Origin: an uncultured Candidatus Saccharibacteria bacterium
Lineage (GTDB): Bacteria; Patescibacteriota; Andersenbacteria; UBA10190
Assembly: GCA_964371255.1 (NCBI GenBank)
Contig: CAYJKV010000003.1
Span: forward strand, 86,901-150,900
Direction of reading: 5' to 3'
Length of the DNA: 64,000 nt
Shown: positions 1 through 25,630 of the stretch, in pieces
How the letters are laid out: the number at the start of each line of letters is the position of its first letter
Numbering within the stretch: the stretch's first letter is position 1
The notes under the pieces: generated by a model
What the model saw: the letters and a program-made list of their open reading frames with translations, nothing else
Told to the model about the DNA's origin: nothing
Databases searched by the model: none
Position numbers and translations under genes: made by a program

Positions 1-2
1 CA

Positions 3-939: not shown

Positions 940-1014
940 TCTTTTTTCCGAGTTATCGCTTGCCATGCAAGCTGTCTGCCCAGTTGTTCATTGCCATTTA
1001 AAGGAGGGATATAC

Positions 1015-1553: not shown

Positions 1554-2489
1554 CTATGTTTTATTTTTTATCTCGCCGCCCACCGTTTCATAAATTAACG
1601 GCACCTCTGTCTTCAGCAGCTCCTTAACAAACACCAATCCATCCTCTCCGCCATCCAGCGCCACGCGCGGTTCATATCGCAGTCCCAACTTGTCATTACC
1701 CAAAGTTGCCTGCGCGGTTAGTTCACCTGAGGGAACATATGGTGGATTGCTGACAATTAAATCCACCCTCCTCTCTTTAATGGGTTGTAATAAATCACCC
1801 TGTAAGCAATCAATTTTATCTTTTATGTCAAACCGTCTGGCGTTCTGTCTGGTTACCTTAAGTGCTGCCCCGGATATATCCGTCGCGATCATCCTCCAAT
1901 CACAGCATAATCTCTCTGCCCTCAACCATTTTTCAATTTCCAAACCAATCGTTATAGCTATACATCCGCTGCCTGTACCAATATCCGCGATTATTATTGT
2001 TTCTCTTTCCGTCTCCTTAAGGCCACCCCTCACTAACTTTTTTATATAACTCAAAGCCTCATCAACTAGCTTCTCGGTACTGGGGCGGGGGATTAAGACC
2101 GCTTCGTTTACAGCAAAGGAACGTCCATAAAACTCCCATTCTCCCAGTAAATAGGCCAACGGCTCGCCCGCGCTTCTTCTTGCTAATAACTGTGAAAAAA
2201 GCGCTAATTCTTTTCCGGTCAGCCGCTCCTCCCCATGGGCTATCAGCCAGCTCGCTTCTTTCTTGTTCAGTATCTTCAATAACATCCACTGGGCATCCAG
2301 CCTCGGATCAGACAAATGCTTTAACTGAATAACCGCCTGCGCCAATGCTTGTTTTATCGTCGAGGAAAATAGCGGTTCGTTTGTATCAGTTTGGTGCTTG
2401 GGATCTAGGATTTGATTTGGCATTGGCCCCGTAGGGGTCCCTTGGGGATCATTGGTCATTAGGCATTCTGATGAGTTACTTGAAAGCAA
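1554..2489 (-). CDS. prmC: release factor glutamine N5-methyltransferase PrmC/HemK
   Basis: IADIGTGSGCIAI SAM-binding motif and the NPPY motif (VSNPPYVPSGE). Lies directly downstream of prfA as in the classical prfA-prmC pair. Confidence 0.85.
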   Translation of the reverse strand: MLSSNSSECLMTNDPQGTPTGPMPNQILDPKHQTDTNEPLFSSTIKQALAQAVIQLKHLSDPRLDAQWMLLKILNKKEASWLIAHGEERLTGKELALFSQLLARRSAGEPLAYLLGEWEFYGRSFAVNEAVLIPRPSTEKLVDEALSYIKKLVRGGLKETERETIIIADIGTGSGCIAITIGLEIEKWLRAERLCCDWRMIATDISGAALKVTRQNARRFDIKDKIDCLQGDLLQPIKERRVDLIVSNPPYVPSGELTAQATLGNDKLGLRYEPRVALDGGEDGLVFVKELLKTEVPLIYETVGGEIKNKT

Positions 2490-2531
2490 AATAATTGGCT
2501 ATGAACAAATTATTTTGTGGATTTCCCCTAA

Positions 2532-3599
2532 TTAAGATTTCGGATTTTCCAATTTTCTCATTTCAACCTTCACTTCCCGAAAAATCTTTTCCCATCCGCC
2601 TTGCATAACCCCTTCAATATTGCTCCAATTCTTCTTGATCCGATGATCAGTTATTCGATCCTGGGGGTAGTTATAAGTACGGATTTTTTCCGACCGGTCA
2701 CCCGTACCCACTTGCTGTTTGCGGTCTCGCGCTTCCTGGTTCATTCTCTTTTCCTCCTCGGCTTCGAGCAGACGCGCTCGAAGCACACTCATCGCTTTAG
2801 CTTTATTCTTGTGTTGACTGCGTTCCTCCTGGACGGCCACCACCGTATTGGTTGGTAAGTGCGTGATCCTCACCGCCGAACTCGTTTTGTTCACGTGCTG
2901 GCCGCCGGCCCCGGACGATCGATAAGTATCAATCCTCAGGTCCTCTGGCTTAATCTCTAAGTCAATTTCTTGCGCTTGCGGCAGTACGGCCACCGTGACC
3001 GTCGAGGTATGGATTCGACCTTGCTTTTCGGTGGCGGGAATTCGTTGCACGCGATGGACGCCCCGTTCATATTTTAAAGTGCCAAAAACATTCTCCCCAT
3101 TGCACTCGGCAATCGCTTCTTTGTAACCGCCTTGCTCGTTTATTGATCGATCCATGAGATGCATTTTCCATCCCTTTTGTTCGGCGTAGCGGGTATATGA
3201 TCGCATCAATTCAGCCGCAAACAAACCAGCCTCGTCTCCTCCCGCCCCCGCCCTAATTTCTAAAATCACGTCGCGCGCATCCCGCGGATCCTGGGGAATT
3301 AATATATCATCAATTTGGCTTTGCGCCTGTTGCTGCTTTTCTCTCAAGGCGATCGCGTCCTCCTCGGCCATTTGCCTTAATTCTGCATCCGTCTCAGTGG
3401 CGGATAATTTATCAGTCGCAGCGATCTCTCCTTCAATTTTCCCCAGTTCCTGCAGCAGTTTTAACAGTCCTTCTTTTTGTTTATGGCTGGCTGTCAGCTC
3501 TTTCATCTTATTGGGATCTAGGCTCACGCGCGGCTGCGCCATCTCTTCCAGTAGATGATTAATTTCTTCCTGCAATTGTTCAACTGTCGGCAATACCAT
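2532..3599 (-). CDS. prfA: peptide chain release factor 1
   Basis: GGQ motif (SGAGGQHVNKTSSAVRITHLPT) and the RF1-type PxT-region context. Confidence 0.9.
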   Translation of the reverse strand: MVLPTVEQLQEEINHLLEEMAQPRVSLDPNKMKELTASHKQKEGLLKLLQELGKIEGEIAATDKLSATETDAELRQMAEEDAIALREKQQQAQSQIDDILIPQDPRDARDVILEIRAGAGGDEAGLFAAELMRSYTRYAEQKGWKMHLMDRSINEQGGYKEAIAECNGENVFGTLKYERGVHRVQRIPATEKQGRIHTSTVTVAVLPQAQEIDLEIKPEDLRIDTYRSSGAGGQHVNKTSSAVRITHLPTNTVVAVQEERSQHKNKAKAMSVLRARLLEAEEEKRMNQEARDRKQQVGTGDRSEKIRTYNYPQDRITDHRIKKNWSNIEGVMQGGWEKIFREVKVEMRKLENPKS

Positions 3600-3671
3600 A
3601 AAATCAGCTTCCCCATTATATGAACGAGACCGCTCCTTTTTCTTAATTATATTCTATCGGCCCTTGAGAGG

Positions 3672-3983
3672 TTAACCCAGCTGAATGCGTTTACTGTCCC
3701 GATCTTTCTTTTTAGCCTCTTCTGCCTTCTTTCGCTTCAGGCGAACATGCTTGATCTTAGTTTCAGTCTTTTCCGCTTGGTCGGCCTTGACTAGCCGTTT
3801 TTTAAACTGGTCCACTCGTCCAGCCACATCCACTAGCTTCTGTTTGCCAGTGTAATAAGGGTGGCAGTTTGAACATACTTCCACTTCCATCTTTTTCTCG
3901 GTTGAACCAACTTCCCAGCTGCCGCCGCAAGCGCAAGTTACGGTCGCTTTCTGCTGATATTCCGGGTGAATCTTATTCTTCAT
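3672..3983 (-). CDS. rpmE: 50S ribosomal protein L31 with Lys-rich C-terminal extension
   Basis: MKNKIHPEY...CACGGSWEV...CSNCHPYYTGKQK zinc-ribbon L31 signature. Confidence 0.85.
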   Translation of the reverse strand: MKNKIHPEYQQKATVTCACGGSWEVGSTEKKMEVEVCSNCHPYYTGKQKLVDVAGRVDQFKKRLVKADQAEKTETKIKHVRLKRKKAEEAKKKDRDSKRIQLG

Positions 3984-4069
3984 ACGATATTATACAAAAT
4001 GCTTAGGTTCGATGATTATAGACAAAAAGATTGATTTTTTCAAGTAACTTCTATATTATTTGCTTCATT

Positions 4070-4900
4070 ATGCCAACAACTAAGATAAAAGCCAAAATAA
4101 AGACCCCAAAGCCCCTCCAGGCTATTCCTAGCCTGGTAGACATGCTGGAAGCCGGTGTGCACTTTGGACATGAGCGCAGTAAGAAGAACCCTAAGATGGA
4201 TAACTATATATTCATGCTCCGTAACCGCATGGCTATTATTGACCTGGAAAAGACTCAGGCGGCCCTGGCCAAAGCCTGTGATTTTATTCACCAAATCGCC
4301 TCTACGCCGGGCAAAGAAATCCTCTTTGTGGGTACCAAGCGACAAACGCGGGAAATTATTAAAAAATACGCGGAAGCCACGCAAATGCCCTATGTTACCC
4401 AACGTTGGTTGGGGGGCATGCTCACTAACTTCTCAACCGTCTTGAAAAGCATTGAAAAGTTGGAAGAATTAAAGAGCATGACGACCAATGAAGCCGCCAT
4501 GGAAAAGATGACTAAGAAGGAACGGTCCGTGCACATGAAGTCTATTGAGCGGTTAGAAAAAGTGTTAGAGGGAACAAAGAACCTCAAAAAACCGCCAGCC
4601 GCCTTGATCGTCGTTGGTTCCTATGACGAAAAGCTTGCCGTCCGTGAAGCCGCCCGCGTCCGTATTCCCGTCGTAGCCGTCACTGATACTAACGCTGATC
4701 CGTCACTCGTCGACTACCCGATTCCTGCTAACGACGATGCTATCCGCGCTATCGATCTGATAGTCAACACATTAGCCGTTTCTATTCTCAAGGCTCAAGG
4801 TAAACCAACCGCCGCCCTTAACAAATTACTCGTCACCAAGCTTGCCCCGGTAGAAACTGCCAGCCCGACCGACGAAGTCTCCAAGGACGCTGCGCAATAA
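4070..4900 (+). CDS. rpsB: 30S ribosomal protein S2
   Basis: MLEAGVHFGHE...WLGGMLTNF S2 signature. Start moved to the internal ATG (MPTTKIK) ahead of the conserved N-terminus. Confidence 0.9.
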   Translation: MPTTKIKAKIKTPKPLQAIPSLVDMLEAGVHFGHERSKKNPKMDNYIFMLRNRMAIIDLEKTQAALAKACDFIHQIASTPGKEILFVGTKRQTREIIKKYAEATQMPYVTQRWLGGMLTNFSTVLKSIEKLEELKSMTTNEAAMEKMTKKERSVHMKSIERLEKVLEGTKNLKKPPAALIVVGSYDEKLAVREAARVRIPVVAVTDTNADPSLVDYPIPANDDAIRAIDLIVNTLAVSILKAQGKPTAALNKLLVTKLAPVETASPTDEVSKDAAQ

Positions 4901-4955
4901 GCTATAATAAATATCTACGCCTACTAAATCTATCGCCACATTTTAACTCAATCAT

Positions 4956-5540
4956 ATGGCCACCATGGACCAAATTAAGGAGCTTCGAGCCCGTACTGGG
5001 TGCGGTGTCGTTGACTGTAAGGAAGCGCTAGAGGAAGCAGGGGATGATATTGAACAGGCCATTACAATCCTGCGTAAAAAGGGCAAAGCCCAAGTGGCTA
5101 AGAAAGCCAGCCGTGACACGCGGGAAGGCGTGGTCATGTCTTACATTCATAGCAATAACAAACTTGGCGTCATTGTCACCTTGCTGTGCGAAACCGACTT
5201 TGTCGCTCGCAACTCCAAGTTTCAAGACTTAGCGCGTAACATAGCTATGCACATTGCTGCGATGGATCCATTGGCGGTAAGTCCCGATGATATCGATGAA
5301 TCTTTAGTCGAAGCTGAGCTTAAGCTAGCGCAGGAACAAGCCGCCGAGTCCGGTAAACCGGCCGATATTCAAACGAAAATGGTGGAGGGAAAGATCAACA
5401 AATTCAAAGCAGAACGGGCTCTATTAAAGCAGCCATTCGTGAAGGACCCAACTAAAACCATCGAGGATATCATTCAAGAAACGGTTCAGGAAATTGGCGA
5501 AAATATTACTATTGGTGAGTTTACGCGCCAAGCTATATAG
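4956..5540 (+). CDS. tsf: elongation factor Ts (short form)
   Basis: MATMDQIKELRARTGCGVVDCKEAL UBA-like N-terminus typical of EF-Ts. Immediately follows rpsB. Confidence 0.9.
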   Translation: MATMDQIKELRARTGCGVVDCKEALEEAGDDIEQAITILRKKGKAQVAKKASRDTREGVVMSYIHSNNKLGVIVTLLCETDFVARNSKFQDLARNIAMHIAAMDPLAVSPDDIDESLVEAELKLAQEQAAESGKPADIQTKMVEGKINKFKAERALLKQPFVKDPTKTIEDIIQETVQEIGENITIGEFTRQAI

Positions 5541-5670
5541 GAAAAATTAGACCTTTGTCCCTTTTTGCTGTTGTTGAATAGCAAACGGGTATAATATGTT
5601 AATAAGTCAGGCCGATGCGTCTTGGCTTACGTAGCACGTCTTGCTATTATGGTAAAGATTAATTATTTGG

Positions 5671-6894
5671 ATGCTATATAACGTCCTACCGCCGCTAATT
5701 TTTTTCATGTCACTAGGGGGCATAATTATTGTCATTTCTAGGGTTGTGCTTCGGCTGCGCCAACAGCAGCTATTAACTGATTTGCAATCCCATGTCACCC
5801 GTGTTTCTCGCACCCGATTAAATAAGGTTCAGGATTTAGCCGGCCTGCTTGCACCGAACCAAATTAGTGTCCAAAGCTTTAAGAATCGTCTCACGTTTCT
5901 AATCCATAACAGTAAAGAGTCTTGGCAAAAAATGTGGCAGGATATTAGTGACTGGCGAGAGAAAAGACGACGCATAAAAGTCAAAACTGCCCGCCAGCCC
6001 GCAGTCGAAAAAATCCCTGCTCTCACCTCAGACTCTGATTCCCCAGATGCTCCCGCTGTCACTGCCATCAGACAACCCAATTCATTTATGAGAAATAAAA
6101 TTGCGGGGATTGCCGGTAAAGTTAAAAAGACACACTTACCTAAGCCATCAAAATTAACAGCCAAAACTGCTGCCATGTTACAGGTTGTCAAACAAAAAAT
6201 TGCTTCTCTTTCTACTCACCCCAGTCTGCGACGCAAGGATCAAGCTGTCATTTCTACCGACCAATCAACAGGCGAAATTGATCCAACCATCAGCGCCAAT
6301 CAGTTGGCAGTAAAACCAAGTGAGTCTCCTAAACTGCGCATAATCAATACAGATGAAATACCCGCTTCTGCTCCTTCCTCGCCGGTCATGGCTACCATGG
6401 GACACCCCGTTAAAGCCGGCAGCCTCAGCCAGCTTTTTAAAAAAGAACTTAAGAAGTCACCCCTCCAGGAAGCCGCTGAAGCACTAGAACATCTCCAGAC
6501 TAAGCGAGCCGAGGATCTCCTTGTCCCATATATAGTGAAGCATCCCAAAGATACAGATGCCTATATGATGCTGGGTAGAGCCGCGATCAACCGTCATGCT
6601 TGGAACGAAGCAACCGAAATCTTTGAACAGGTTATTAAATTAAAACCAGAAACCGAAGGATGTTACGCGGCCTTGGGTCAAGCGGCTTTAGAAGCCGGCA
6701 ACCTGACAAAAGCCATACAAACCTTGCAGCGTGCGCACGATCAAAATCCGCAAAATGTATTTGTGATCAAATGCCTCTTACAAATTGCCAGCCGTATGGA
6801 CAACCGCCCCCTGCAGCAATCTCTTAACCTCGAGCTACAACAGTTGGAGCAATCAACAGTCCCAAACTCCCAGTCAGTAAGCTCGCCCCCATAA
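5671..6894 (+). CDS. membrane-anchored TPR-repeat protein
   Basis: N-terminal TM helix. C-terminal TPR-like repeats (DAYMMLGRAAINRHAWNEATEIFEQVIKLKPE..., AALGQAALEAGNLTKAIQTLQRA). Confidence 0.55.
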   Translation: MLYNVLPPLIFFMSLGGIIIVISRVVLRLRQQQLLTDLQSHVTRVSRTRLNKVQDLAGLLAPNQISVQSFKNRLTFLIHNSKESWQKMWQDISDWREKRRRIKVKTARQPAVEKIPALTSDSDSPDAPAVTAIRQPNSFMRNKIAGIAGKVKKTHLPKPSKLTAKTAAMLQVVKQKIASLSTHPSLRRKDQAVISTDQSTGEIDPTISANQLAVKPSESPKLRIINTDEIPASAPSSPVMATMGHPVKAGSLSQLFKKELKKSPLQEAAEALEHLQTKRAEDLLVPYIVKHPKDTDAYMMLGRAAINRHAWNEATEIFEQVIKLKPETEGCYAALGQAALEAGNLTKAIQTLQRAHDQNPQNVFVIKCLLQIASRMDNRPLQQSLNLELQQLEQSTVPNSQSVSSPP

Positions 6895-7288
6895 CAAACC
6901 ACACAAGGTTACCGGTGCCAGTTTGTGCTGTTATTGGCACGGCCGCGACTTCGTTGATATTCTCCTGTACGGACTTAACTTCTACCACATCAAACGCCGC
7001 CTCTTCTGTTATCACCCCTTCTACTTGAGGTTGAGTGCTGATGCTGATGATGGCATTGTTGATCGGCGAGGCAATCATCTCGCTTGGGGAAACTTCCGGT
7101 GCCAAAACGGTTGACGCGTCATTTAAGCTCCGCATTTCTACCACCGCCGCTGGCGGTGGTAGTGCTGCCTTTAAATTGCTGCGCGGCATATCTCCATTCT
7201 GATCGCTAAAATAGACACCTGCCCCAAGCAATACCACTACGATTGTCAGCGCCAACAATGAAAATTTCATCTCAAACATAATAGACAC
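6824..7288 (-). CDS. hypothetical secreted/membrane protein
   Basis: Signal/TM segment MKFSLLALTIVVVLLGAGVYF. Its 3' end overlaps the convergent TPR gene by about 70 bp. Confidence 0.35.
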   Translation of the reverse strand: MSIMFEMKFSLLALTIVVVLLGAGVYFSDQNGDMPRSNLKAALPPPAAVVEMRSLNDASTVLAPEVSPSEMIASPINNAIISISTQPQVEGVITEEAAFDVVEVKSVQENINEVAAVPITAQTGTGNLVWFVMGASLLTGSLGLLIAPTVVARG

Positions 7289-7565
7289 ATATATTGTTCA
7301 TATGATATGTACTCTCCGTGCCTGTGATTGTCAACCACTGTTCGCCAGTCAAAAATTAACTGGATAGTCACCAGAAAAAAACATTAAGTGTGTTATTGTT
7401 AATTACATGAACGGTTTTTCCTTTCAATTTTTCGCCTGGGCCATGTTTTTCATTAGCGCTATTGCTATGCTAACGGTTGGACTCGTTCGTATTTTTTTGG
7501 TTTACCATGTGATCAACTAAACAACCGGTCTCTATCCAATACTAAGTGCGACAAATTCTGGGCCG

Positions 7566-7645
7566 ATTCCCTCCCTGATAAGAGAGGGGTAGGGATGGGT
7601 TTTTAAACTATTGCCAATCCCAAACCCCTCCGCCTGCCGGCAGAA
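7566..7645. repeat. degenerate relic of the MITE-like element core (CCCTGATAAG hairpin plus GGGGTTTGG box plus CGCCTGCCGGCAG palindrome)
   Basis: Sequence tccctccctgataagagaggggtagggatgggttt aligns with the cores of the elements at 20601 and 22449. Confidence 0.4.
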
Positions 7646-8143
7646 CCCCCCCCTGTACAAGCGAAGATAAGAATCAGATGGAGATAATATGAACAATCTG
7701 AAATTCCTTAAAAAAATAATTACCCCTCATTTTACAGGAATCATTCTTCATTTTGCCATCCGTGTATTTCGAGACGCGCTATTCTTAGAGCATCAGTCTT
7801 TATCGCCTCAACTTTATGCGACGCATAGCAGCCGTTGTATATTTATTCCTTGCTATAGCCAAAATCAACATTAGATCATTGGACATGAGATCCTTCCTCT
7901 TTGTTGCCCTTATATTACTAGCCGTAGTCGTTCTAACAATTGTGTATTTACAATCAAATGTGCAGCCCCCGCAGGGGATTACTCCAATCCTCTCCAGTGT
8001 TCCTTTTTTCAACAACCCTGGTCACGTCTGACAACCATGTCCCTCTCCCTTCATCGAGGGGGGTAGTCCAAGACGGTGACGATAAAATAATCCGCATCAA
8101 AAATCTGGCAGTCCTCACATCTCAATAAACGTCGCTGCAAATT

Positions 8144-16699: not shown

Positions 16700-19600
16700 A
16701 TGATCTATCGCATGTACCGACAGATGGACAGTAGTCTGGAGCTTGGTTTCTATATCGAGACCACAAGTCAGCTGTCCCAATTGGAGCAAAGACAGCTTCT
16801 GTGGCTGGTCGCAGAAACATTCGAACCCAGCCAAACTGGAACCGAACCCCACTTGACATCACCAGATGTCGTGGAAATCGGACCAAGGATTTCAATTGAG
16901 ACTCCATTCTCGTCGAATGCCGTCTCAATCTGCCAATCCATGGGGCTGCGGCAGATTACCCGTATCGAGCGTACTCACCGCCACCTAATTTGCAATGGCC
17001 AGTCGGCGGACATCCTCCTTCAGACTCATCTTGACCTAATGACCGAGCAGCACTACCCGAACGGAATCGAGAGTTTTGACACCGGCACATTGCCTGAAGG
17101 TGTCAAAGAAATCGACCTCATGGGTCGCGGCCAAGAAGCACTCGACGATATGAACAGTGCGCTTGGTCTTGGCATGGATGCCCGGGACCTCGAGTACTAT
17201 CAATATCTTTTTACTCAGGTCCTTCACCGGAATCCGACCGATGTTGAATTGTTCCAACTGGGCAACGCCAACAGCGAGCACAGCCGGCACTGGTACTTCA
17301 AGGGCCAGATTGTCATCGATGGAACGCCCATGCCGGAGACTCTCTTTGCGATCGTTCAGCGCCCGCTGAAAAGTCTCGGCAGTGATAATCGCAGCCTCGT
17401 TGCCTTTAGGGACAACGCTGGTGTGATCAAAGGATTCGGCACGCGCTTAATCCTTCCTGTCAATCCAGGCATGCCTTCGGCAATGTGTATCTTGGCAAAG
17501 GTGGTTCATATCACCTGTACCGCGGAAACTCACAACCATCCGACTTTCGTGTCGCCATACAATGGCGCTGCCACCGGTCCGGGAGGTGAAATACGTGACG
17601 GCAGTGCCGTTGGTTGTGGAGGTATATCAGGCATCGGTGTATTTGGTCTTTTTGTTGGCAACCTCTTTATCCCCGGGTATGAAATCCCAGGAGAAATAGT
17701 GGGTTACGGCAAACCGTCCAAGTACGCCTCTCCTCTTAGAATTCTGATTGAAGGAAGCAACGGGGCTTTTGATTACGGCAACCAGATCGGCAGGGCAGTC
17801 ACTCTAGGCTTTTGCCGAACCTTCGGTCAGACAGTCGGAGGCCAGTGGCGTGAGCCACGCAAACCAATCCTCTATAGTGGTGGTGTCGGTCACTTGTTTA
17901 ACGAGCACATCATTAAAGGGACGCCTGAAGTTGGCATGCTCATCGTGCGCATTGGCGGCCCCGCTTACCCTGTCGGGGTTGGCGGAGGCTCAGCTTCAAG
18001 CATGATGCAGGGTCAGAACACCGAGGATCTCGATTTCAACTCCGTCCAGCGCGGTAACGCAGAAATGGAGAATCGGGCGAACCGGGTCATTCGAGCCTGC
18101 ATCGAAATGGGCAATCAAAATCCCATCTCAAGTATTCACGATCAAGGTGCCGGTGGGCCGAGCAATGTTCTTACGGAACTTCTTGAACCCCTCGGCGGCC
18201 AGATCAACATTCGCGGCATTGTGCTTGGCGACAAGACGATGTCCGTCCTTAAAATCTGGAGCGCTGAATTTCAAGAAGGATATGGACTCCTGATCAGGCC
18301 GGAACGGATCGAACTTTTCATGTCGGTCTGTAAACGCGAGCGTGTCAACTGCGAAGTCCTCGGTGCAATCGATGGCCGTGGAAACGTTGTCGTTGAAGAT
18401 TCTCAAAACGGGACAACACCCGTCGCACTGAACCTGGATCAGATTCTGACGAATATGCCTCAGAAAACGTTCGAGTCTACCCGAGGGACTGAAGGCCTCA
18501 AACCTTTGAACCTGCCGGATGTCACTGTCGGCGAGGCACTGCGGGCGGTGTTCAAACTTCCCAGTGTGGGTTCGAAAGGGTTCCTTGTTCACAAGGTGGA
18601 CCGAAGCGTTACTGGGCTCGTCGCGCAGCAACAATGCTGTGGCATTGCCCAGATTCCGATTGCGAATGTGAGCATTAACGCACAAAGCCATTTCGGTTTA
18701 ACCGGAGCGGCCAGTGCAGTCGGTGAACAGCCGGTGAAGATGCTCATTGATCCGCGAGCTGGAGCCAGAATGGCGGTAGCAGAAATGCTGACCAACCTGG
18801 CCTCGGCACGGATTAGTGGTATGGAAGATATTCGATGCCGTGCCAACTGGATGTGGCCTGCTAAGCTGCCTAACGAAGGCGCCCTCCTCTATGAGGCCGC
18901 AGTTGCTATGTCTGACCTCATGGTCGGGCTTGGCATTGCAGTTGATGGAGGTAAAGATAGCCTGTCAATGGCAGCGACAATTTCGGGAGAGCTCGTAAAG
19001 GCGCCTGGCAGTTTAGTGATTCTCGGGTACGCCCCCGTGCCTGACATCACGAAGAAGGTCACGCCGGATATCAAGGAGGCAGGACGAAGCGAGTTGTGGC
19101 TGATTGATCTTGGACTGGGTAAAAATCGCCTAGGCGGTTCAGCTCTAGCTCAAGCGTTCAACCAGCTCGGTGATGAGTCGCCCGATGTTGACAGCCCTAA
19201 ACTCCTCAAGAACGCGTTTCTTGCGGTGCAACAGATGATCGACGACGGGTTGATTCTGTCTCTGCATGATCGAAGCGACGGTGGTCTCATAACCGCGGTC
19301 GCAGAGATGTGTATGGCCAGTTGCTGTGGATTCAGTCTGAGCGTTCCTAACGCTGAAGAATTACTGGCTAGTTTATTTAGCGAGGAGCTCGGGTTTATTG
19401 TAGAAGTTGAACAAGGAGAAAAGATTGGTCAAATTTGTAAACTTTGCCAGTCACTCGGTGTACCGATTTACAATGTTGGCAAGACGCTGTTAAGCACTTT
19501 GTGCGAGGTACATAATGGTGCTGATCAAACATTCTGGGATAGCTCAATTACAGATCTCCGGGCGTGGTGGGAGTCTACATGTTACGAAGTCGAGAAGTTG

Positions 19601-20539
19601 CAGATGAATCCCGCGTGTGCCGAAGAAGAACATGTTGCTCGCCAGAGCCGGCTTCCCAGCATTAATGCGGCTCCATCTTATCAGCTCTCGTTTGCTCCAA
19701 TTGCAACACCTCTGGCAGTTCTGGAGGCGGACAACAAACCTCGTGTGGCGGTGCTGCGCGAGGAAGGCACGAACGGCGACCGAGAAATGCAAGCTGCCTG
19801 TGCAGCAGCCGGTTTTGCACCATGGGATGTCACTATGAGTGATCTTCTGGCAGGCAGCATCAATCTGGATATGTTCCAGGGGATCATCTTTGCTGGCGGC
19901 TTCTCCTACAAGGACGTATTCGACAGCGCTAAAGGCTGGGCCGGGACAATCCTGTTCAATGATAGGTTGAGGGAGATGTTCGACCGCTTCTACGTCCGCG
20001 AGGATATATTCTCGCTCGGCGTGTGCAACGGCTGTCAGCTGATGGCGCTACTCGGATGGGTACCGTGGCAAGGCATTGCCAGTGAGATGCAACCGAGGTT
20101 CGTTCACAACACTTCGGGTCGGTTTGAGTCCAGGTGGGTACAGGTAGAAGTTTTACCCAGCCCATCGGTGCTTCTTAACGGCCTGGAAGGATCGAAGCTC
20201 GGCATATGGGTCGCTCATGGCGAAGGCCGACTGGTTTATCCGGATCAGTCGATTGCGCAGGAGGTTTTAAAGCTTAAGCTGGCACCTCTCGTCTACCTGG
20301 ATCCATATGGTGAGCAGACGGAACTGTATCCATACAATCCGAATGGTTCGCCGCTCGGGATTACGGCTCTGTGCTCTCCAGACGGACGTCATCTTGCAAT
20401 GATGCCTCATCCAGAACGTTGTTTTCGTTGGTGGCAGTGGCCTTGGCAGCCAGCTTCATGGCAACGTCTCAACACCTCTCCATGGCTCCGGATGTTTCAG
20501 AACGCCAGGGAATGGTGCAGGGCTTACGGACTTATCTAA
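16700..20539 (+). CDS. purL: phosphoribosylformylglycinamidine synthase, large single-chain type
   Basis: 1279 aa. ETHNHPTFVSPYNGAATGPGGEIRD FGAM-synthetase core. C-terminal class-I glutamine amidotransferase (GVCNGCQLMALLGW). N-terminal repeat as in E. coli PurL. Confidence 0.9.
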   Translation: MIYRMYRQMDSSLELGFYIETTSQLSQLEQRQLLWLVAETFEPSQTGTEPHLTSPDVVEIGPRISIETPFSSNAVSICQSMGLRQITRIERTHRHLICNGQSADILLQTHLDLMTEQHYPNGIESFDTGTLPEGVKEIDLMGRGQEALDDMNSALGLGMDARDLEYYQYLFTQVLHRNPTDVELFQLGNANSEHSRHWYFKGQIVIDGTPMPETLFAIVQRPLKSLGSDNRSLVAFRDNAGVIKGFGTRLILPVNPGMPSAMCILAKVVHITCTAETHNHPTFVSPYNGAATGPGGEIRDGSAVGCGGISGIGVFGLFVGNLFIPGYEIPGEIVGYGKPSKYASPLRILIEGSNGAFDYGNQIGRAVTLGFCRTFGQTVGGQWREPRKPILYSGGVGHLFNEHIIKGTPEVGMLIVRIGGPAYPVGVGGGSASSMMQGQNTEDLDFNSVQRGNAEMENRANRVIRACIEMGNQNPISSIHDQGAGGPSNVLTELLEPLGGQINIRGIVLGDKTMSVLKIWSAEFQEGYGLLIRPERIELFMSVCKRERVNCEVLGAIDGRGNVVVEDSQNGTTPVALNLDQILTNMPQKTFESTRGTEGLKPLNLPDVTVGEALRAVFKLPSVGSKGFLVHKVDRSVTGLVAQQQCCGIAQIPIANVSINAQSHFGLTGAASAVGEQPVKMLIDPRAGARMAVAEMLTNLASARISGMEDIRCRANWMWPAKLPNEGALLYEAAVAMSDLMVGLGIAVDGGKDSLSMAATISGELVKAPGSLVILGYAPVPDITKKVTPDIKEAGRSELWLIDLGLGKNRLGGSALAQAFNQLGDESPDVDSPKLLKNAFLAVQQMIDDGLILSLHDRSDGGLITAVAEMCMASCCGFSLSVPNAEELLASLFSEELGFIVEVEQGEKIGQICKLCQSLGVPIYNVGKTLLSTLCEVHNGADQTFWDSSITDLRAWWESTCYEVEKLQMNPACAEEEHVARQSRLPSINAAPSYQLSFAPIATPLAVLEADNKPRVAVLREEGTNGDREMQAACAAAGFAPWDVTMSDLLAGSINLDMFQGIIFAGGFSYKDVFDSAKGWAGTILFNDRLREMFDRFYVREDIFSLGVCNGCQLMALLGWVPWQGIASEMQPRFVHNTSGRFESRWVQVEVLPSPSVLLNGLEGSKLGIWVAHGEGRLVYPDQSIAQEVLKLKLAPLVYLDPYGEQTELYPYNPNGSPLGITALCSPDGRHLAMMPHPERCFRWWQWPWQPASWQRLNTSPWLRMFQNAREWCRAYGLI

Positions 20540-20600
20540 AAGCCAATCCGACCTCTTACTTATGGATGTGTAAGGGGTTTTTTATTTTTTTCAGGCCCGT

Positions 20601-20760
20601 CATACCAACCGGAGTTAATTCCTGCTATATTCCACACTTATCCTTCTCCCTGCCTCGCCCCGCCGTTGGCGGGGATAAAGGGGCCTGCCTGCCGGTAGGC
20701 AGGGATTGATGGGGTTTGGTCGTCACCGGCATAGCAGACATTAAGTTCGGTTGGTATCAG
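20601..20760. mobile_element. MITE-like element copy A (about 160 bp, about 31-bp imperfect terminal inverted repeats ATACCAACCGRAGTKAATTCCTGCTATATTCC ... GGCATAGCAGACATYAARTTCGGTTGGTAT)
   Basis: Terminal inverted repeats seen directly. The GC-rich hairpin core contains the CCTGCCTGCCGGTAGGCAGG palindrome. A second copy lies at 22449. Confidence 0.7.
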
Positions 20761-20821
20761 CCGGTCTTTTCATGCAGGGAACTTTGGTTCAAACGTTATC
20801 CACCCCGCGGCCACGGTCACT

Positions 20822-20850
20822 AGACACACATTTAAAATGTGTCTATACTG
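20822..20850 (+). promoter_or_regulatory. palindromic operator-like site overlapping a TATACT -10 upstream of the YcaO gene
   Basis: agacacacattt aaaatgtgtgtct inverted repeat immediately followed by TATACT. GGAG RBS 9 nt before the YcaO ATG. Confidence 0.4.
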
Positions 20851-20922
20851 CCTATCTGGTTTTTCCTGTTCATTCGCTGTACCGACTGTGCCTTAACAAC
20901 TTTTCGTCTCGGAGAATAGATC

Positions 20923-22113
20923 ATGTTTCGCGTCAAAGTTCTTAGTAATGACCCGTCACCTCTCGCCTACAAGCCTCGTACCTATATTGTCGAAGCTCAA
21001 ACCGACCAAACTGTTGGCTATGGTTCTCATTCTGATTGCGCGACTGCCCGAGAAATTGCTATCGCTGAAGCAAGCGAACGGCAGGCTGTCTACGCTAACC
21101 TTCCCCTCAATGTTGGCCCGCTCAATGGCAGCAGTCAACGAATTGATCCCAGGACACTGATGCCGCTTTCCGTCGAGCAACTTCGTCACGTTTATTTGGA
21201 GGAATTCAATCCTGATCTGGACTATCGATGGCTGGCCGGTCATGAAGTTATGAACGGTTCGCCGGTCGAGATCATTGCGGATTGTTGTCTTTATTCTCTG
21301 CCAGATAATTGGCCCAACGGCCGTGTTGCCTGGGCGAATTCTAACGGCATGGCTGCTGGCAAGACGTATGACGACGCTGAAAAATCCGCTCTGCTCGAGT
21401 TATTCGAAAGAGACGCGCTGATGAATATCTGGATGTCACGTTTCTCGCCGCCCCAAATCGCTAACCGTCATCTGCCCGGCAAAGTCACTGCCATTCAGAA
21501 GGACTTATCCAGTACCGGCTACCAGTTTGCCACCCTTGACGCTACTTGTCGCTCTGTCCCGGTTGTGATCACATTGGCTTACCGGGACCGGCCCCCGGCA
21601 TTAGTTCTAACAGCAGCAGCGCGTTTTTCGTTGGTCGAAGCCGTTCACGCTGCCTGGCGCGAACTTGAGCGGGAAATATTTCTCCGGTTACTGTTAGCTA
21701 AGTCATCTGCTTCAACTGCTATGCCAACCAAGATACCGATCACTTGTGTCCGCAGCAGCAACGACCACGCCTCCTTTTACAGTGATCCTGAAAATTCGTC
21801 ATACGCTAGCTTTCTCTGGCAAAGCGATCCGGCCGACAACCAACCAGAGGACCGACACCAGCTTTGTGACCAACCGTCGTCAATATGGGACCTAAGAACT
21901 TGTTGCCAAAACTGCTCCATCAGTCAGCTATATTATCTCGACTATGGATTAATTAATGGCCACCATGTTATTCGTTTAATGACCCCGGATCTTGTGCCTT
22001 TGTTGTTCGGATATAATCAATTTCCCTTAGCCCATCGGGCTCGCCATACCTGTTATCTTCCATCTCTAACCCCTAACTGGAACTGCCCTGTTCCACCTCA
22101 CCCCTTGGATTGA
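20923..22113 (+). CDS. stand-alone YcaO-domain protein (cyclodehydratase-like ATP-dependent amide activator)
   Basis: VGYGSHSDCATAREIAIAEASERQAV and WANSNGMAAGKTYDDAEKSALLELFERDAL match the YcaO ATP/Mg signature. C-terminal Pro-rich end ...CPVPPHPLD (PxPxP-like). Cys-rich C-terminal segment. Confidence 0.75.
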   Translation: MFRVKVLSNDPSPLAYKPRTYIVEAQTDQTVGYGSHSDCATAREIAIAEASERQAVYANLPLNVGPLNGSSQRIDPRTLMPLSVEQLRHVYLEEFNPDLDYRWLAGHEVMNGSPVEIIADCCLYSLPDNWPNGRVAWANSNGMAAGKTYDDAEKSALLELFERDALMNIWMSRFSPPQIANRHLPGKVTAIQKDLSSTGYQFATLDATCRSVPVVITLAYRDRPPALVLTAAARFSLVEAVHAAWRELEREIFLRLLLAKSSASTAMPTKIPITCVRSSNDHASFYSDPENSSYASFLWQSDPADNQPEDRHQLCDQPSSIWDLRTCCQNCSISQLYYLDYGLINGHHVIRLMTPDLVPLLFGYNQFPLAHRARHTCYLPSLTPNWNCPVPPHPLD

Positions 22114-22192
22114 CAAAACCAACCGTGTTAGACTACTATCTCGTTAGTTGTTGTTTTCGTTTTAAGGCATTCTCAAAAATAGGAGTAAAAAG

Positions 22193-22354
22193 ATGCCTTG
22201 CTCAAGTAGTGAACTCCCACGGGAGCAGAAACGGGTTAGCCATCAGGAAATCGAGCTAGCTGCGTACTATCGGTATCTGTGGCGGAAGCGAAACGGCATT
22301 CCCGGAACCGCCCAGGAAGATTTTGAGAGAGCTGCTGCAACGCTCGCCACGTAA
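22193..22354 (+). CDS. DUF2934-like small protein (53 aa)
   Basis: AGGAG RBS. LAAYYRYLWRKRNGIPGTAQEDFERAA resembles the DUF2934 core (AYxxWxxRGxPxGxxxxDWxxAE). N-terminus MPCSSSELP. Confidence 0.5.
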   Translation: MPCSSSELPREQKRVSHQEIELAAYYRYLWRKRNGIPGTAQEDFERAAATLAT

Positions 22355-22448
22355 TGCATCCTCTTCCAACGTGCGTGCCCCCACCGCCACTCAATTACGA
22401 GTGTGCGGTTTTTTTATAAATAGGAGCCCAGCAGAAGAATATAGGTGT

Positions 22449-22565
22449 CATACCAACCGAAGTGAATTCCTGCTATATTCCACTGTCGTTCTTCCCCCTG
22501 ATAAGGGGGATTGAGGGGGTTTGGCCGTCACTGGCATAGCAGACATCAAATTCGGTTGGTATCAG
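22449..22565. mobile_element. MITE-like element copy B (about 117 bp), same TIRs as copy A
   Basis: tcataccaaccgaagtgaattcctgctatattcc ... ggcatagcagacatcaaattcggttggtatcag. Core has CCCCCTGATAAGGGGG hairpin plus GGGGTTTGG. Confidence 0.7.
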
Positions 22566-22892
22566 GTTAGGAAAATTACGTCATCAATTTTCCAATAAGG
22601 GAATGGTCTCATCCATTCCCTTGTTGTCAGTCCACCCTAACGGAACATGTTAGAACCTTACTGCAACAAATGTGCCGGGAAACCTAACTTGAGCAGGGGT
22701 ACAGCGCCTTCGCTACAGTACACCCAAATAACATGGGCAAAGCGTCCGAAGCCATATTTGACAGAGAAGCATATACATGATTAGATATTGCATCCTAGCC
22801 GGTATGCTGGGAATGTAAGTTTTGAGGCTATTTAGGTTCCGGTGCGTTACCGGGATGGGATTAGTCTCACCATAACGTAAGGAGTTCCTTTT

Positions 22893-23528
22893 ATGTCTAC
22901 TTCAAAGGGTTCGCAGTTGGCTCGTGGTGCCAGTATGGCCGCTGACGTCTGGCAGAAACTAGATCAGCGCGTGAAGGCACGCGGCGGCACCGACGAGGAC
23001 ATGTATCGCCTGGCCAACAAGGAAGGCGAGTGCATCCTCGACTTGGTCGCCGACCATCTCGTGAAGGTGGGAGCCGTTCATCGCAACCGCTACCCGGTCC
23101 AGTCCAAGCACAAGTCGCTCCAGGACGCGATTGCGGCGGGCAAGTACGACTACGTTAACGGCTACATCACCGCCGAGCATTTCAAGCTCGAGGGCGAGAT
23201 CGTCGTTGATACAAAGCTCGTGCTGTACCACCCGGATCGCGACATCGAGAGCGATGACGTGGTCAAGGAGCTGGATCAGATGGGACTGCGGCCTGCCACC
23301 TTGCAGGAGCTGTGCGCTTTCGGGGAGAAATACCCCAACATCCAGCGCGAATTCCCTTGTGTGGCTCTTGGTTCCGTCTGCGTGGTCTCGCTCGGCGACC
23401 GGAACGTCCCGTATCTCGGCTACTGGGGCGCTGGGCGCAGGCTCTACCTGAGCTGCTGGGATGATGTGTGGGGTCCGCGTTGCCGCTTCCTCGCCGCCCG
23501 CAAGCCTGCCTGTCCGGCAGGCAGGTAG
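22893..23528 (+). CDS. hypothetical protein encoded in a locally high-GC (about 60%+) segment
   Basis: RBS AAGGAG before the ATG. Strong GC3 bias distinct from flanking DNA. The antisense ORF 22959..23624 is the usual high-GC artefact. The gene ends inside the GCCTGCCTGTCCGGCAGGCAGG palindrome. Confidence 0.45.
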   Translation: MSTSKGSQLARGASMAADVWQKLDQRVKARGGTDEDMYRLANKEGECILDLVADHLVKVGAVHRNRYPVQSKHKSLQDAIAAGKYDYVNGYITAEHFKLEGEIVVDTKLVLYHPDRDIESDDVVKELDQMGLRPATLQELCAFGEKYPNIQREFPCVALGSVCVVSLGDRNVPYLGYWGAGRRLYLSCWDDVWGPRCRFLAARKPACPAGR

Positions 23529-24013
23529 CCCTTTGGTCCTTGGGCACTTGAGTCCTTTGTGCCCTTGGATCCTTTGCCTCGCAAAATCTTTTGATTTCGT
23601 GGGGCTTTTTAATTTGCGAAGCAAATTATCCCGTGTAGCCTTAGCGGAGTGGAACGCATGGGTTTTGCAATCAGGCAGTACTATATAGATACGGTGGAAT
23701 TGGAGTAAACAATGCGTGCCGCAGATTACGGCTTGCGGCGGTTATGCTCTGGGACTGGCCATGTTGCCAGAATCACGAAGGTCACGGCTTTCGTGAGCGT
23801 GCGTAAGTCAGTTCTCACATACTTTAGATACTTAGTGCAGAATACCGGGGGAATAAGTTCTTCGATAAACTCAGAGTGAAGGATCCTGAAGACTAGTACA
23901 GCCCAATGCGACTATTCGCGGGGCAGTGTTCGCGACTATTTACGACAGAAGTCTGGCGAGGGTTTCTTAGTTTATGGACTCCTTAGCTGTAAACTTGGCA
24001 CTAGGACAGCTAG

Positions 24014-24042
24014 TTGACATAAAGAGGTGAGTTAGCTAATAT
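24014..24042 (+). promoter_or_regulatory. sigma70-like promoter TTGACA-17-TAATAT
   Basis: Consensus -35 and near-consensus -10 with 17-bp spacer, about 50 nt upstream of the GTG start at 24095. Confidence 0.55.
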
Positions 24043-24094
24043 CGCTCACAGGTCATTTTGCACATTTCACCGCCAACAATATCGGAGGTTCTCA

Positions 24095-24655
24095 GTGAAG
24101 ACGCTGCCTATACACCCAAACTTTGCGCCAGAATTCGCCATTGGACAAACAGTCTGGTTCATTACCTCTGGACGAGAAGTAGAATCCGACCAAATCCGAA
24201 GCGTTTCCTTCAAATCAATGCGGTCAGACGGGCAGGAAAAATTGCTGTGCACCGGGTATCAGCTCAGTATGACGAACCCAGACGCAGTGGACGAAGAGAC
24301 TTTTTCGCCTCGTGATCTTTACAAGACAAAAGCTGTAGCGCAGCAACTTGCTGTGTGGCACTCAGTCGAAGGTATCCGTGAAGACGAGTGGCTCCAAGCT
24401 ATTGGAGACAGGGAGGAGGAAACGATTGAAGACTATGAGCTTGGCATATGTTGTACTGGCCTATCTGATGTCCGAGATCTTCTGACCCAATGCCAGCAGG
24501 ACGGCGGGCTCATTGAAAGAGATTGTCGTCGTATCACGGCGCTTCTTAAAGGCAGCGGGCACTCTGACAAACTGGACATTACCGACTGCCCAAAACCCAT
24601 ACTTATCAGGATATTTGAGCAACTTGGTGTTGTGTCTGCATCCCAAGAAACATAA
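24095..24655 (+). CDS. hypothetical protein (186 aa)
   Basis: GTG start with GGAGG RBS at -7. No recognised domain. Confidence 0.5.
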   Translation: MKTLPIHPNFAPEFAIGQTVWFITSGREVESDQIRSVSFKSMRSDGQEKLLCTGYQLSMTNPDAVDEETFSPRDLYKTKAVAQQLAVWHSVEGIREDEWLQAIGDREEETIEDYELGICCTGLSDVRDLLTQCQQDGGLIERDCRRITALLKGSGHSDKLDITDCPKPILIRIFEQLGVVSASQET

Positions 24656-24715
24656 AGTCGCTCAATCAAAACCAAATCATAGCCGCGTGAATATCCTTCA
24701 CGTGGTTTTTCTTAT

Positions 24716-24755
24716 CTTGATTCCAAGCACCCATTTGGTTAGGCAATGAAAACAG
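24716..24755. repeat. conserved non-coding box 1, copy a (TGATTCCAAGCACYCATTKGGTTAGG...)
   Basis: About 85% identical to 25333..25372. Confidence 0.5.
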
Positions 24756-24899
24756 CTCAATCCAGACTGGTAGCAAGGTAGCTCTTCGGCCCACCGCGCC
24801 AGTTGGCGGGGATGCCCCTGAGTTCTTCGAAGTACAATGAGATTTCTTTTAAGTTGGTCACTTGCGTGACCTGTTCTCGAGCCCAAAAGGTAAGAGAGT

Positions 24900-24945
24900 G
24901 TTGCCCGGCCGTCCATTGCTTTAGCGGCGAACGGGAATCAAAACC
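24900..24945. repeat. conserved non-coding box 2, copy a (TTGCCCKGCCGTCCATWGCTTTAGCGGCGAACGGGAATCAAA)
   Basis: About 90% identical to 25417..25462. Confidence 0.5.
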
Positions 24946-25093
24946 AAGAGAGGAGATAACTGTCTTTGCAAAGATTTATGATCGTTCCTTAAAGAGGATA
25001 GAAGAGTCCAAATTCTAATTCGGTTGATAATTAATGTAGTAAAAGTATAGTTTCTAAGTTGGTACCATCAATGTACTTTTCGGGAGACTCACC

Positions 25094-25276
25094 ATGGTTA
25101 GTCATGAAGGTTGGCGAAGTATTATCCGCGATGCTTGTGACTTACGAGAACTTCTATCTCATGGCGATGTTGTGAAAGGCATGAAATTTCCTATACTGGA
25201 CTCACTCACTCCACAGCGCCACGAAAAACAGGAGTCAAGGCAGTCATCGGAACGAAGAGATGTTCCCCAAGCCTAA
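25094..25276 (+). CDS. small hypothetical protein (60 aa) between the duplicated boxes
   Basis: GGGAG RBS. Followed by a canonical terminator. Confidence 0.3.
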   Translation: MVSHEGWRSIIRDACDLRELLSHGDVVKGMKFPILDSLTPQRHEKQESRQSSERRDVPQA

Positions 25277-25299
25277 TAGGGTTAACTGGACCAAGACAA

Positions 25300-25332
25300 C
25301 CGCCGCCACTTAAAAACAAGAGGCGGCTTTTT
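25300..25332 (+). terminator. Rho-independent terminator
   Basis: ccgccgcc-loop-ggcggc followed by TTTTT. Confidence 0.6.
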
Positions 25333-25372
25333 ATGATTCCAAGCACTCATTGGGTTAGGAGAATAGAAATAG
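25333..25372. repeat. conserved non-coding box 1, copy b
   Basis: See 24716. Confidence 0.5.
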
Positions 25373-25416
25373 CTGCATAAAAAAAGCAATTTTGATATCC
25401 AATAGGTTAGAGAAAA

Positions 25417-25462
25417 TTGCCCTGCCGTCCATAGCTTTAGCGGCGAACGGGAATCAAATCAA
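25417..25462. repeat. conserved non-coding box 2, copy b
   Basis: See 24900. Confidence 0.5.
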
Positions 25463-25630
25463 GGGATTTGCCGTCATTTACTAACGTTCTCTGGTTAGAC
25501 CGGATGCTGTATCACCATAAAATGATATCTTTAGTGCTTCTGCCGATAAAAAGTTTGGAACCATAAAAAATAGCTCCGGAGAGTTAGTAACCCATCGGAG
25601 CTCTTGAGGGTAATGGCGATCGGTAGCACT

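Follow-up and report, generated by a model that had tools for sequence, protein, structure and literature searches.

ATP-dependent activation of the peptide backbone is the general mechanism of YcaO enzymes. Most YcaO proteins have no known substrate, and for the stand-alone members the finding of a substrate is the bottleneck (PMC8442711). In the bottromycin pathway stand-alone YcaOs act, after removal of the initiator methionine, on an N-terminal core that is trailed by a follower peptide (PMC7136475). In the klebsazolicin and streptamidine pathways a YcaO-dependent six-membered amidine is formed on residues 1 and 2, which needs a free N-terminal amine (PMC8442711; PMC7136475); streptamidine starts with His1-Leu2-Ser3 and klebsazolicin with Ser1-Gln2 (PMC8442711; PMC7136475). 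The subject of this report is a pair of genes in a 64,000-nucleotide stretch of DNA from an uncultured bacterium (GenBank assembly GCA_964371255.1, contig CAYJKV010000003.1), hereafter called the window. A stand-alone YcaO enzyme of 396 aa (20923..22113, forward strand) is followed on the same strand by a 53-aa small protein (22193..22354), whose first codons (22193-22219) spell the motif MPCSSSELP.

It is proposed, with a probability of roughly 0.6, that the two genes make up a minimal peptide- or protein-modification system, in which a partner-independent YcaO acts on the N-terminal motif of the small protein encoded beside it. A first, sequence-only reading of this DNA had put the locus forward as a candidate new system of the RiPP type (peptides made by the ribosome and modified after translation) or for protein modification, which is a fair label. 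The same reading saw no obvious precursor and no assignable substrate, and on this point it has to be revised: the small ORF (open reading frame) is the best candidate, as its motif is the only part kept in 12 small ORFs that accompany the enzyme in 9/9 readable stand-alone members of its clade.

A YcaO enzyme paired with a motif-bearing small protein

The enzyme was characterised from the ORF listing, Pfam and NCBIfam profiles, an alignment of its clade and a structure model. Pfam YcaO (PF02624) matches residues 38-356 with an E-value of 1.8e-33 and 116.7 bits against a cutoff of 25.7, which bears out the family assignment first made from the motifs and the ...CPVPPHPLD tail; all clade members match the same profile. 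Two acidic motifs, A-E49-A-S-E52-R53 and E159-L-F-E162-R163-D164, are kept or nearly kept across the clade alignment. The first (AEASER) aligns with EAIER of the M. jannaschii YcaO MJ1094, whose structure is available with ATP (6pe3), and the second (ELFERDA) with EIIERDA of the same enzyme and with ELVERD of the heterocyclases TruD and LynD. An AlphaFold2 model, for which ten clade sequences were the input, has the YcaO fold (pLDDT, the predicted local distance difference test, 70.5), and its top Foldseek matches are LynD (E 2e-13), MJ1094, MusD, the M. kandleri YcaO, E. coli YcaO and McbD. The ATP/Mg signatures quoted in the earlier reading are present, and judged from its sequence the protein can be taken as a true stand-alone YcaO in which both acidic ExxER motifs are intact. 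Its C-terminus follows the pattern P-x-P-P-H-P-L-x, and PPHPL (IPHPL in two cases) stands at the extreme C-terminus of 10/10 clade sequences. A Pro-rich C-terminus is a trait of azoline-forming YcaOs (PMC8442711). The Cys-rich stretch CDQPSSIWDLRTCCQNCS that had been pointed out ahead of the tail is indeed present, but it is not kept in the relatives and was dropped as a functional element for that reason.

Among the NCBIfam profiles the best match is to the SagD cyclodehydratases (TIGR03604) of the thiazole/oxazole-modified microcins (TOMMs), at 116.9 bits against a curated cutoff of 219.25; relatives of the enzyme score 81.7 and 125.1 bits with this profile. The McrA-thioamidation family (TIGR03266) gives 41.4 bits against a cutoff of 365, and the E. 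coli-type YcaO, the RimO/S12 accessory protein (NF040716), 22.2 bits against a cutoff of 700, both below membership. With 22 bits against 700 the enzyme is not of the housekeeping E. coli type, which had been considered in the first reading as the mundane explanation of the gene; E. coli-type proteins also measure about 570-590 aa, with a C-terminal domain, against the 396 aa found here.

The clade to which the enzyme belongs is very rare. A word-indexed search of 5.8 billion clusters returned the enzyme itself together with one relative at 61% and one at 42% identity, and an exhaustive HMMER scan of 1.84 billion representatives gave 14 clusters at E<1e-30. One group of these consists of stand-alone forms of about 400 aa; the other five measure about 620 aa and carry an N-terminal extension of 260 aa, for which there is no Pfam match. 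A scan of 185,579 GTDB species genomes with two patterns found no close relative, only fragments of about 28% identity from Latescibacterota and Gemmatimonadetes, and a scan of the JGI metagenomes with the clade alignment added nothing new to the known 61% relative beyond two matches at 24% identity. The clade seems to be confined to one uncultivated lineage. Its members come from related uncultivated bacteria, as is apparent from a gene order (FtsW, a 110-aa ORF, L25, PrmC, RF1, S2, a short EF-Ts of 194 aa and a TPR protein) that is the same in the window strain (positions 1-7000 of the window together with the contig L035) and at positions 1-6400 of locus L014, the organism of which carries a 38%-identical YcaO (P0010); the window has L31 in addition between RF1 and S2.

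The closest relatives that do not stand alone are the ~620-aa enzymes of the sister clade (E 1e-40 to 1e-70), which are encoded directly after a SagB-like nitroreductase, and the next tier of HMMER matches consists of the usual fused cyclodehydratases of about 700 aa, some of them fused to a nitroreductase. The stand-alone clade thus has its place in the midst of enzymes that form azol(in)es, and the nitroreductase beside the sister clade points to an azol(in)e-forming lineage; judged by these relatives the enzyme is probably of the azoline type. At two sister-clade loci, L032 (NCBI GCA_964610055.1, CAZSUC010000001.1, 6300-16100) and L019, the 620-aa YcaO is part of a fuller TOMM-like cluster with a helix-turn-helix protein, a SagB-like nitroreductase gene that overlaps the YcaO start, a DUF2268 protein, an aminotransferase, a ThiF protein and a C39 peptidase; the DUF2268, ThiF and C39 peptidase genes are those of one NCBI genome. 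No obvious precursor peptide for the sister clade was found at L032.

DNA flanks were fetched around every stand-alone cluster, and nine of them, with enzymes 36-62% identical to that of the window, had readable flanks. In each of the nine a small ORF lies 11-87 nt 3' of the YcaO stop codon, and three loci (L012, L014 and L015) have a second one 169-199 nt upstream of the enzyme, so that wherever the flanks can be read the pairing of YcaO with a motif-bearing small ORF is universal. A Shine-Dalgarno sequence of the AGGAG type stands 5-9 nt before the ATG that opens the motif in 12/12 small ORFs, which fixes the N-terminus of the peptides. What the 12 peptides have in common is their first 7-9 residues, M-[P/A]-[C/A/S/P]-[S/C]-x-[S/T]-[D/E/Q/G/S], and their tails are unrelated. 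A side chain that can cyclise is present at positions 4 and 6 in every case, and behind the initiator methionine all 12 read [P/A]-x-[S/C], with proline as residue 1 in nine of them.

The tails show how different the bodies behind this motif can be. DUF2934-like tails follow MPCSSSELP in the window and MPCSASEIP in the 61% relative (L002), and DUF2934 tails follow MACSSSDGP upstream of the enzyme in L014 and MASSGSDGP upstream of it in L015. The third upstream peptide, that of L012, starts with MACSGSQSP and has an acidic tail. The tail is Lys-rich behind MPASFTSGP in L001, MPCSASQTS in L011, MPCSYSDST in L013 and MPCSASDSQ in the downstream peptide of L014, Lys/Arg-rich behind MPASYTETP downstream in L012, Pro/Lys-rich behind MPASASDGP downstream in L015 and Ala/Glu/Pro-rich behind MPPCSTGQGP in L016-18. 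Chance does not account for the motif: when 211 kb of control DNA were searched for its combination with a Shine-Dalgarno sequence and an ORF of 30 aa or more, the single occurrence was the window peptide itself. Its conservation acts at the protein level, since TCA as well as AGY codons are used for the invariant Ser4 and since the proportions of non-synonymous and synonymous differences (pN/pS) between the window and L002 are 0.31/0.76 for the peptide and 0.24/0.76 for YcaO, with synonymous sites saturated.

The pair does not travel with a fixed set of neighbours. Its genomic context varies by locus, with at least six different contexts: the window pair follows purL, the L012 pair is near SmpB, that of L001 has a tRNA-like stretch (recognised from the sequence alone) on one side and an HtrA-like protease on the other, and that of L014 comes after a YggT-family gene and two functionally unassigned ORFs. 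An all-against-all BLASTP comparison of the loci found no third conserved gene, YcaO and the peptides being all that they have in common. The exception is an ORF of unknown function that is present in L002 (2-322) and L016 (4063-5229) alone, 52% identical between them and 388 aa long in L016, with no Pfam match; it is upstream of the pair in one locus, 2 kb downstream in the other and absent from the window. Its linkage may be loose, or it may merely reflect the relatedness of the two organisms.

Partners known from other YcaO systems were looked for across about 74 kb of the genome. Domains of the ThiF/E1-like, TfuA, nitroreductase and transposase families are absent from the scanned window ORFs of at least 90 aa, which agrees with the earlier observation that no E1-like or ThiF partner, dehydrogenase or TfuA is nearby; for the window ORFs outside the domain scan (ATP-synthase subunits, purM, purL, purN and a tRNA synthetase) the annotation was taken over from a contig of the same strain. 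Nor is a ThiF, TfuA, nitroreductase, dehydrogenase, protease or transporter gene conserved beside the pair, either among the scanned window ORFs or in the flanks of the relatives.

The small ORFs might instead be accessory or regulatory partners, or unrelated neighbours, of an enzyme that modifies an unlinked housekeeping protein, in the manner of the thioglycine of McrA or of E. coli YcaO and RimO on S12. Such protein-modifying YcaOs exist (PMC8442711), the window is core chromosome with ribosomal proteins, ATP synthase, pur genes and the dcw cluster, and the transporter, protease and immunity genes typical of secreted RiPPs are not present at the locus. An accessory protein would, however, keep its folded part, whereas here residues 1-9 alone are kept and the tails are of three unrelated types. 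Motif ORFs on both sides of the enzyme in three loci correspond to the usual pattern of multiple precursors, the pair moves together across at least six genomic contexts, and the E. coli-type model fails by its score. Taken on both sides this alternative is very improbable, and the small protein is probably the substrate of the YcaO, as gene order and the shared motif indicate.

The window peptide was characterised from the ORF listing, its Shine-Dalgarno site, profile matches and a structure model. The 53-aa DUF2934-like ORF of the sequence-only reading is a real gene by its AGGAG, 8 nt 5' of the ATG, but its match to the family (PF11154) is sub-threshold, at 18.3 bits against a cutoff of 22. 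The L002 peptide (21.5 bits) is also below the cutoff, which is clearly passed by the upstream peptides of L014 (40.7 bits) and L015 (42.6 bits). In the window peptide the tail can be aligned with DUF2934 and is modelled as the expected helical hairpin, residues 17-52 being confident (pLDDT ~95) and residues 1-16 disordered, so that the N-terminal motif is predicted to be accessible. Ordinary DUF2934 proteins, for example P0158 and P0159, which were retrieved with the peptide profile, differ in being without the M-P-C-S-x-S motif. No NCBIfam model matches any of the peptides, and literature searches returned no paper linking DUF2934 with YcaO.

Proposed chemistry and the nearest described systems

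In the proposed mechanism the M-P-C-S-x-S motif would be a leaderless N-terminal core. The initiator methionine would be removed by the ordinary methionine aminopeptidase, leaving X1-X2-Ser/Cys3. Methionine aminopeptidase prefers a small second residue, and its action is expected here since residue 2 of the peptides is always Pro or Ala. YcaO would then bind the flexible N-terminus of the small protein and use ATP to O-phosphorylate an amide of the backbone. Attack by the Ser/Cys side chain at position 4, possibly also by Ser/Thr 6, would then give an azoline by cyclodehydration, which is considered the most likely chemistry. A six-membered N-terminal amidine could be formed in a follow-on reaction. 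The remainder of the peptide would be a variable follower or functional body, here a DUF2934-type hairpin and in the relatives a Lys/Arg-rich or acidic stretch. An azoline or amidine at residues 2-6 as the product is put forward tentatively, at odds a little short of even, from the motif and the relatives of the enzyme.

The same enzyme and substrate could also be joined by another chemistry, either a TfuA-free thioamidation, as by the archaeal McrA enzymes, or an ATP-dependent peptidase reaction that cuts the motif from the tail, as by MusD. MusD (7u58, "YcaO-mediated ATP-dependent peptidase") is among the top fold matches, MJ1094, a TfuA-independent thioamide-forming YcaO, tops the sequence matches in the PDB, and there is no dehydrogenase at the locus to turn an azoline into an azole. 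These similarities are set against a TIGR03266 score (41 bits, cutoff 365) that is well under that of the SagD profile, a Pro-rich C-terminus that is a hallmark of the azoline type, nearest relatives that pair with SagB-like nitroreductases, and a motif whose conserved residues are the Ser, Cys and Thr nucleophiles required by cyclodehydration. A thioamide-forming or peptidase enzyme is accordingly regarded as quite unlikely.

In its overall logic the pair appears closest to bottromycin, the likeness to BotC and BotCD (BmbD and BmbE) acting on BotA being one of architecture. The bottromycin enzymes do without an E1-like, Ocin-ThiF or TfuA partner, and their substrate has an N-terminal core right after the methionine and a C-terminal follower in place of a leader (PMC7136475); the same would apply here. 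The bottromycin clusters differ in having two YcaOs, a dedicated Met aminopeptidase, an amidohydrolase for the follower, a P450, radical-SAM methyltransferases and a transporter, whereas the window and the loci of the relatives have none of these. They differ also in having one conserved follower, whereas the tails here (DUF2934, basic or acidic) are interchangeable.

Klebsazolicin (KlpD) and streptamidine (AmiD) offer a second comparison, as the peptides here would start with [P/A]-[C/A/S/P]-[S/C] after excision of the methionine, and AmiD is likewise a stand-alone YcaO with a Pro-rich C-terminus (PMC8442711; PMC7136475). In those systems, however, a leader peptide and a protease or hydrolase are needed to expose the N-terminus, for which ordinary methionine excision would suffice here, and klebsazolicin also needs an E1-like partner and a dehydrogenase. 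Residue 1 here is usually proline, a secondary amine, and amidine chemistry in these peptides is a matter of pure conjecture.

With the cyclodehydratases of the TOMMs, or linear peptides that contain azol(in)es (SagD, McbD, LynD; TIGR03604), the enzyme shares its best-scoring profile, the YcaO fold, the acidic ExxER motifs and the Pro-rich C-terminus, and its sister clade has an N-terminal extension and a SagB-like nitroreductase as neighbour. It differs from them in its score below the cutoff, in having no C-protein or E1-like domain and no dehydrogenase nearby, and in a putative precursor that is not built of an N-terminal leader and a C-terminal core. From TfuA-YcaO thioamidation it is set apart by the absence of TfuA nearby, together with the TIGR03266 score given above.

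Several points weigh against the two-gene reading. The assignment of substrate and chemistry draws on gene order and sequence. The enzyme falls short of the SagD cutoff, the confidence of its model is only moderate, with a low-confidence C-terminal tail, and a single-sequence query finds its best PDB match in the thioamide-forming MJ1094 (E 1.6e-6, or 6e-10 with a profile). Residue 2 is mostly proline, which would give a secondary amine after methionine removal, so that its role as the amidine nucleophile is conjectural. The conserved part of a RiPP precursor is usually the recognition element and not the core, and here a motif of 7-9 residues would have to serve as both. To our knowledge all azoline-forming YcaOs except those of bottromycin need an E1-like or Ocin-ThiF partner, and such a partner could be encoded elsewhere in the genome, beyond the ~74 kb covered.

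The transcription unit, its flanking repeats and its neighbourhood

From 20552 to 22565 the window holds, in this order, the purL terminator, a repeat element (copy A), a putative promoter, YcaO, the peptide gene, a terminator and a second copy of the element (copy B). The intrinsic terminator of purL (20552..20592, forward strand) has an 8-bp stem, CCTCTTAC/GTAAGGGG, followed by a T-run; it was missed by the terminator scan as its loop is longer than 8 nt and was read directly. A promoter-like TAGACA-17-TATACT (20821..20849, forward strand), with 10/12 consensus matches, is the putative promoter and operator of the YcaO-peptide unit. It is overlapped by a perfect 8+8 palindrome, TAGACACA...TGTGTCTA (20821-20845), in keeping with the operator-like site that had been described at the TATACT -10. 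In L002 an 8+8 inverted repeat, CTGCGTGT...ACACGCAG, is located at ~797-830, about 65-95 nt 5' of the YcaO start; it is similar to the window palindrome in position but different in sequence, and no regulator gene is linked to it. A second promoter-like site, TTGACA-18-TACTAT (22110..22139, forward strand), overlaps the YcaO stop codon (GAT TGA CA) and may be a separate promoter that raises expression of the peptide gene; TTGACA is found at the same place in L002 (2093-2122), with a weak -10 hexamer 18 nt downstream. The unit is closed by an intrinsic terminator (22384..22415, forward strand) with the stem CCGCCACTC.../...GAGTGTGCGG and a run of seven T, of which the scan found the inner stem (22388-22403).

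The two elements that frame the unit resemble miniature inverted-repeat transposable elements (MITEs) and, as had been seen from the sequence at the outset, bracket the gene pair. Copy A (162 bp, 20599..20760) starts 6 nt past the purL terminator and copy B (119 bp, 22447..22565), in the same forward orientation, 32 nt past that of the peptide gene. Homology between them starts and stops sharply at GTCATACC and GGTATCAG, and no such match is expected by chance. Their terminal inverted repeats (20602-20628 and 20731-20757 in A, 22450-22476 and 22536-22562 in B) measure 27 nt, not the roughly 31 bp first estimated, and are 81-85% complementary. Each copy folds into a long hairpin (z -5.7 and -5.0). 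Apart from a 43-nt internal insertion that contains two GC-rich hairpins, one of them a REP-like palindrome, copy A corresponds to copy B, and since the copies are only 85-92% identical besides this indel they are not a recent duplication. Like bacterial MITEs and repetitive extragenic palindromic (REP) sequences they are short, non-coding, sharp-ended and placed in intergenic DNA beside terminators. They differ from MITEs in that two copies only are present, without a clear target-site duplication, a parent insertion sequence or transposase, or an Rfam match.

Searches for the wider family of the element were largely negative. The two copies are confirmed, but neither the 64-kb window nor the adjoining 10 kb on its left has a further one, and no convincing target-site duplication was found at either, the best being 2 bp (CC and GT) picked post hoc. 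No transposase or parent insertion sequence was detected among the scanned window ORFs, the terminal repeat had 0 matches in the JGI metagenome contigs, and Rfam reported only tRNAs in the window and nothing credible at 20400-22900. No flanking repeats surround the gene pairs of the relatives. No empty site was seen, as all same-strain contigs carry both copies. Several independent same-strain assemblies break off within copy B, 18 nt beyond its left repeat, and another has its start within copy A; as the longest exact word common to A and B is about 19 nt, these breaks suggest more copies elsewhere. By a rough estimate, two copies would fall into adjacent intergenic gaps out of ~40 with a chance of about 5%, which is suggestive only.

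The 1.97-kb segment from copy A to copy B might be a composite mobilisable cassette, moved by a transposase in trans or by recombination between the copies, as the sequence-only reading proposed, and such a cassette would be compatible with any functional reading of the genes. The bracket itself is real: the sole two copies in ~74 kb flank exactly one promoter-to-terminator unit in direct orientation and with sharp homology boundaries. The pair sits between purL and purN, with functionally unassigned ORFs and DNA of about 60% GC next to it, relatives carry it in differing contexts, and the assembly breaks hint at copies elsewhere. Yet both copies lie just 3' of intrinsic terminators, the usual landing place of independent MITE or REP insertions, and their divergence and 43-nt indel, the lack of a convincing target-site duplication, of a transposase domain, of metagenomic matches to the terminal repeat and of an empty site all speak against mobility. 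The bracket is moreover seen in this strain alone, the relatives having the pair without repeats. A mobilisable cassette is therefore rather unlikely, and the MITE-like elements are strain-specific insertions that frame the unit and not part of the conserved system. Elements of the integron attC type were considered as well and dropped, as there are only two copies, near-identical ones, no integrase domain occurs in the scanned ORFs and the segment has its own promoter and terminator.

The 43-nt insertion of copy A carries a REP-like palindrome, GCCTGCCTGCCGGTAGGCAGGG, that recurs at 55037 and 62170. In the form GCCTGCCTGCCGG[T/C]AGGCAGG this GC-rich palindrome is found at 20683-20704, 55037-55058 and 62170-62191, with looser copies near 23504-23525 and 62072-62094. 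One REP-like palindrome is flanked by a direct repeat, GGATTCCCCTAGAGGCT, at 54906-54922 and 55106-55122, 200 bp apart, which overlaps a 114-aa ORF without family match and may be another small repeat family.

The surroundings are core chromosome with a GC content of 48%. The window encodes L25, PrmC, RF1, L31, S2, EF-Ts, the ATP synthase operon, purM, purL (ORF 16700-20539), purN and a class-I tRNA synthetase (tRNA-synt_1b), and further MurB, a ClpB-like protein, mraZ, mraW, a PBP, a Mur ligase, SOD, RmuC, LexA, two sortases and a pilin. Between copy B and purN (22600-25600) there are three ORFs without a significant family match, of 211 aa (22893-23528), 186 aa (24095-24655) and 60 aa (25094-25276), and at 23000-23800 the GC content rises to about 58-60%, against 48% for the window, with long overlapping ORFs on both strands; the segment may be an inserted or variable one between purL and purN. 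All three ORFs were rejected as partners or precursors, having no motif, family match or counterpart in the relatives, and with them falls the suggestion that the 60-aa ORF at 25094 could be a candidate peptide. In two same-strain contigs from other samples (L036 and L038), lengths differ by about 270-390 bp from those of L035 between the S2/EF-Ts genes and the ATP synthase epsilon gene (window ~4900-8100), and some genes of that stretch lack a call; indel variation at the strain level may be the cause, or else noise in the assemblies.

A proposed leaderless tag on small proteins

Neither YcaO chemistry nor the stand-alone form of these enzymes is new in itself. What would be new is the combination of two genes, no leader, no partner and an N-terminal tag of 7-9 residues on interchangeable small proteins. 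Literature searches on leaderless YcaO precursors and on YcaO in the candidate phyla radiation returned no prior description of such a leaderless motif. As no transporter, protease or immunity gene accompanies the pair and as the tails resemble small folded or basic proteins, it may be speculated that the product stays inside the cell as a modified protein and is not a secreted antibiotic.

A bolder form of this idea, which is regarded as unlikely though not far-fetched, is that of a new N-terminal modification of proteins, in which the partner-less YcaO would recognise the (M)-P-C-S-x-S N-termini of small intracellular proteins, nascent or mature, and form an azoline or a bicyclic N-terminal amidine there as a cap. 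DUF2934 hairpins would be its substrates, together with Lys/Arg-rich peptides that resemble nucleic-acid binders, and no leader, protease or recognition domain would be needed. If so, the pair would be the smallest self-contained YcaO system known and would give a first functional handle on DUF2934-type proteins.

For the two-gene system as proposed, comparative genomics names a candidate substrate and the likely residues in the setting of two genes without leader, recognition partner or tailoring enzymes. If it holds true, the pair would be the simplest model of a YcaO domain that by itself recognises and activates a peptide backbone, and it would provide a compact tool for the N-terminal capping of proteins with an azoline or amidine through a tag of 6-9 residues. 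For the uncultivated lineage in which the clade seems to be confined, it would be the first clue to the biology of its DUF2934 small proteins and basic mini-proteins.

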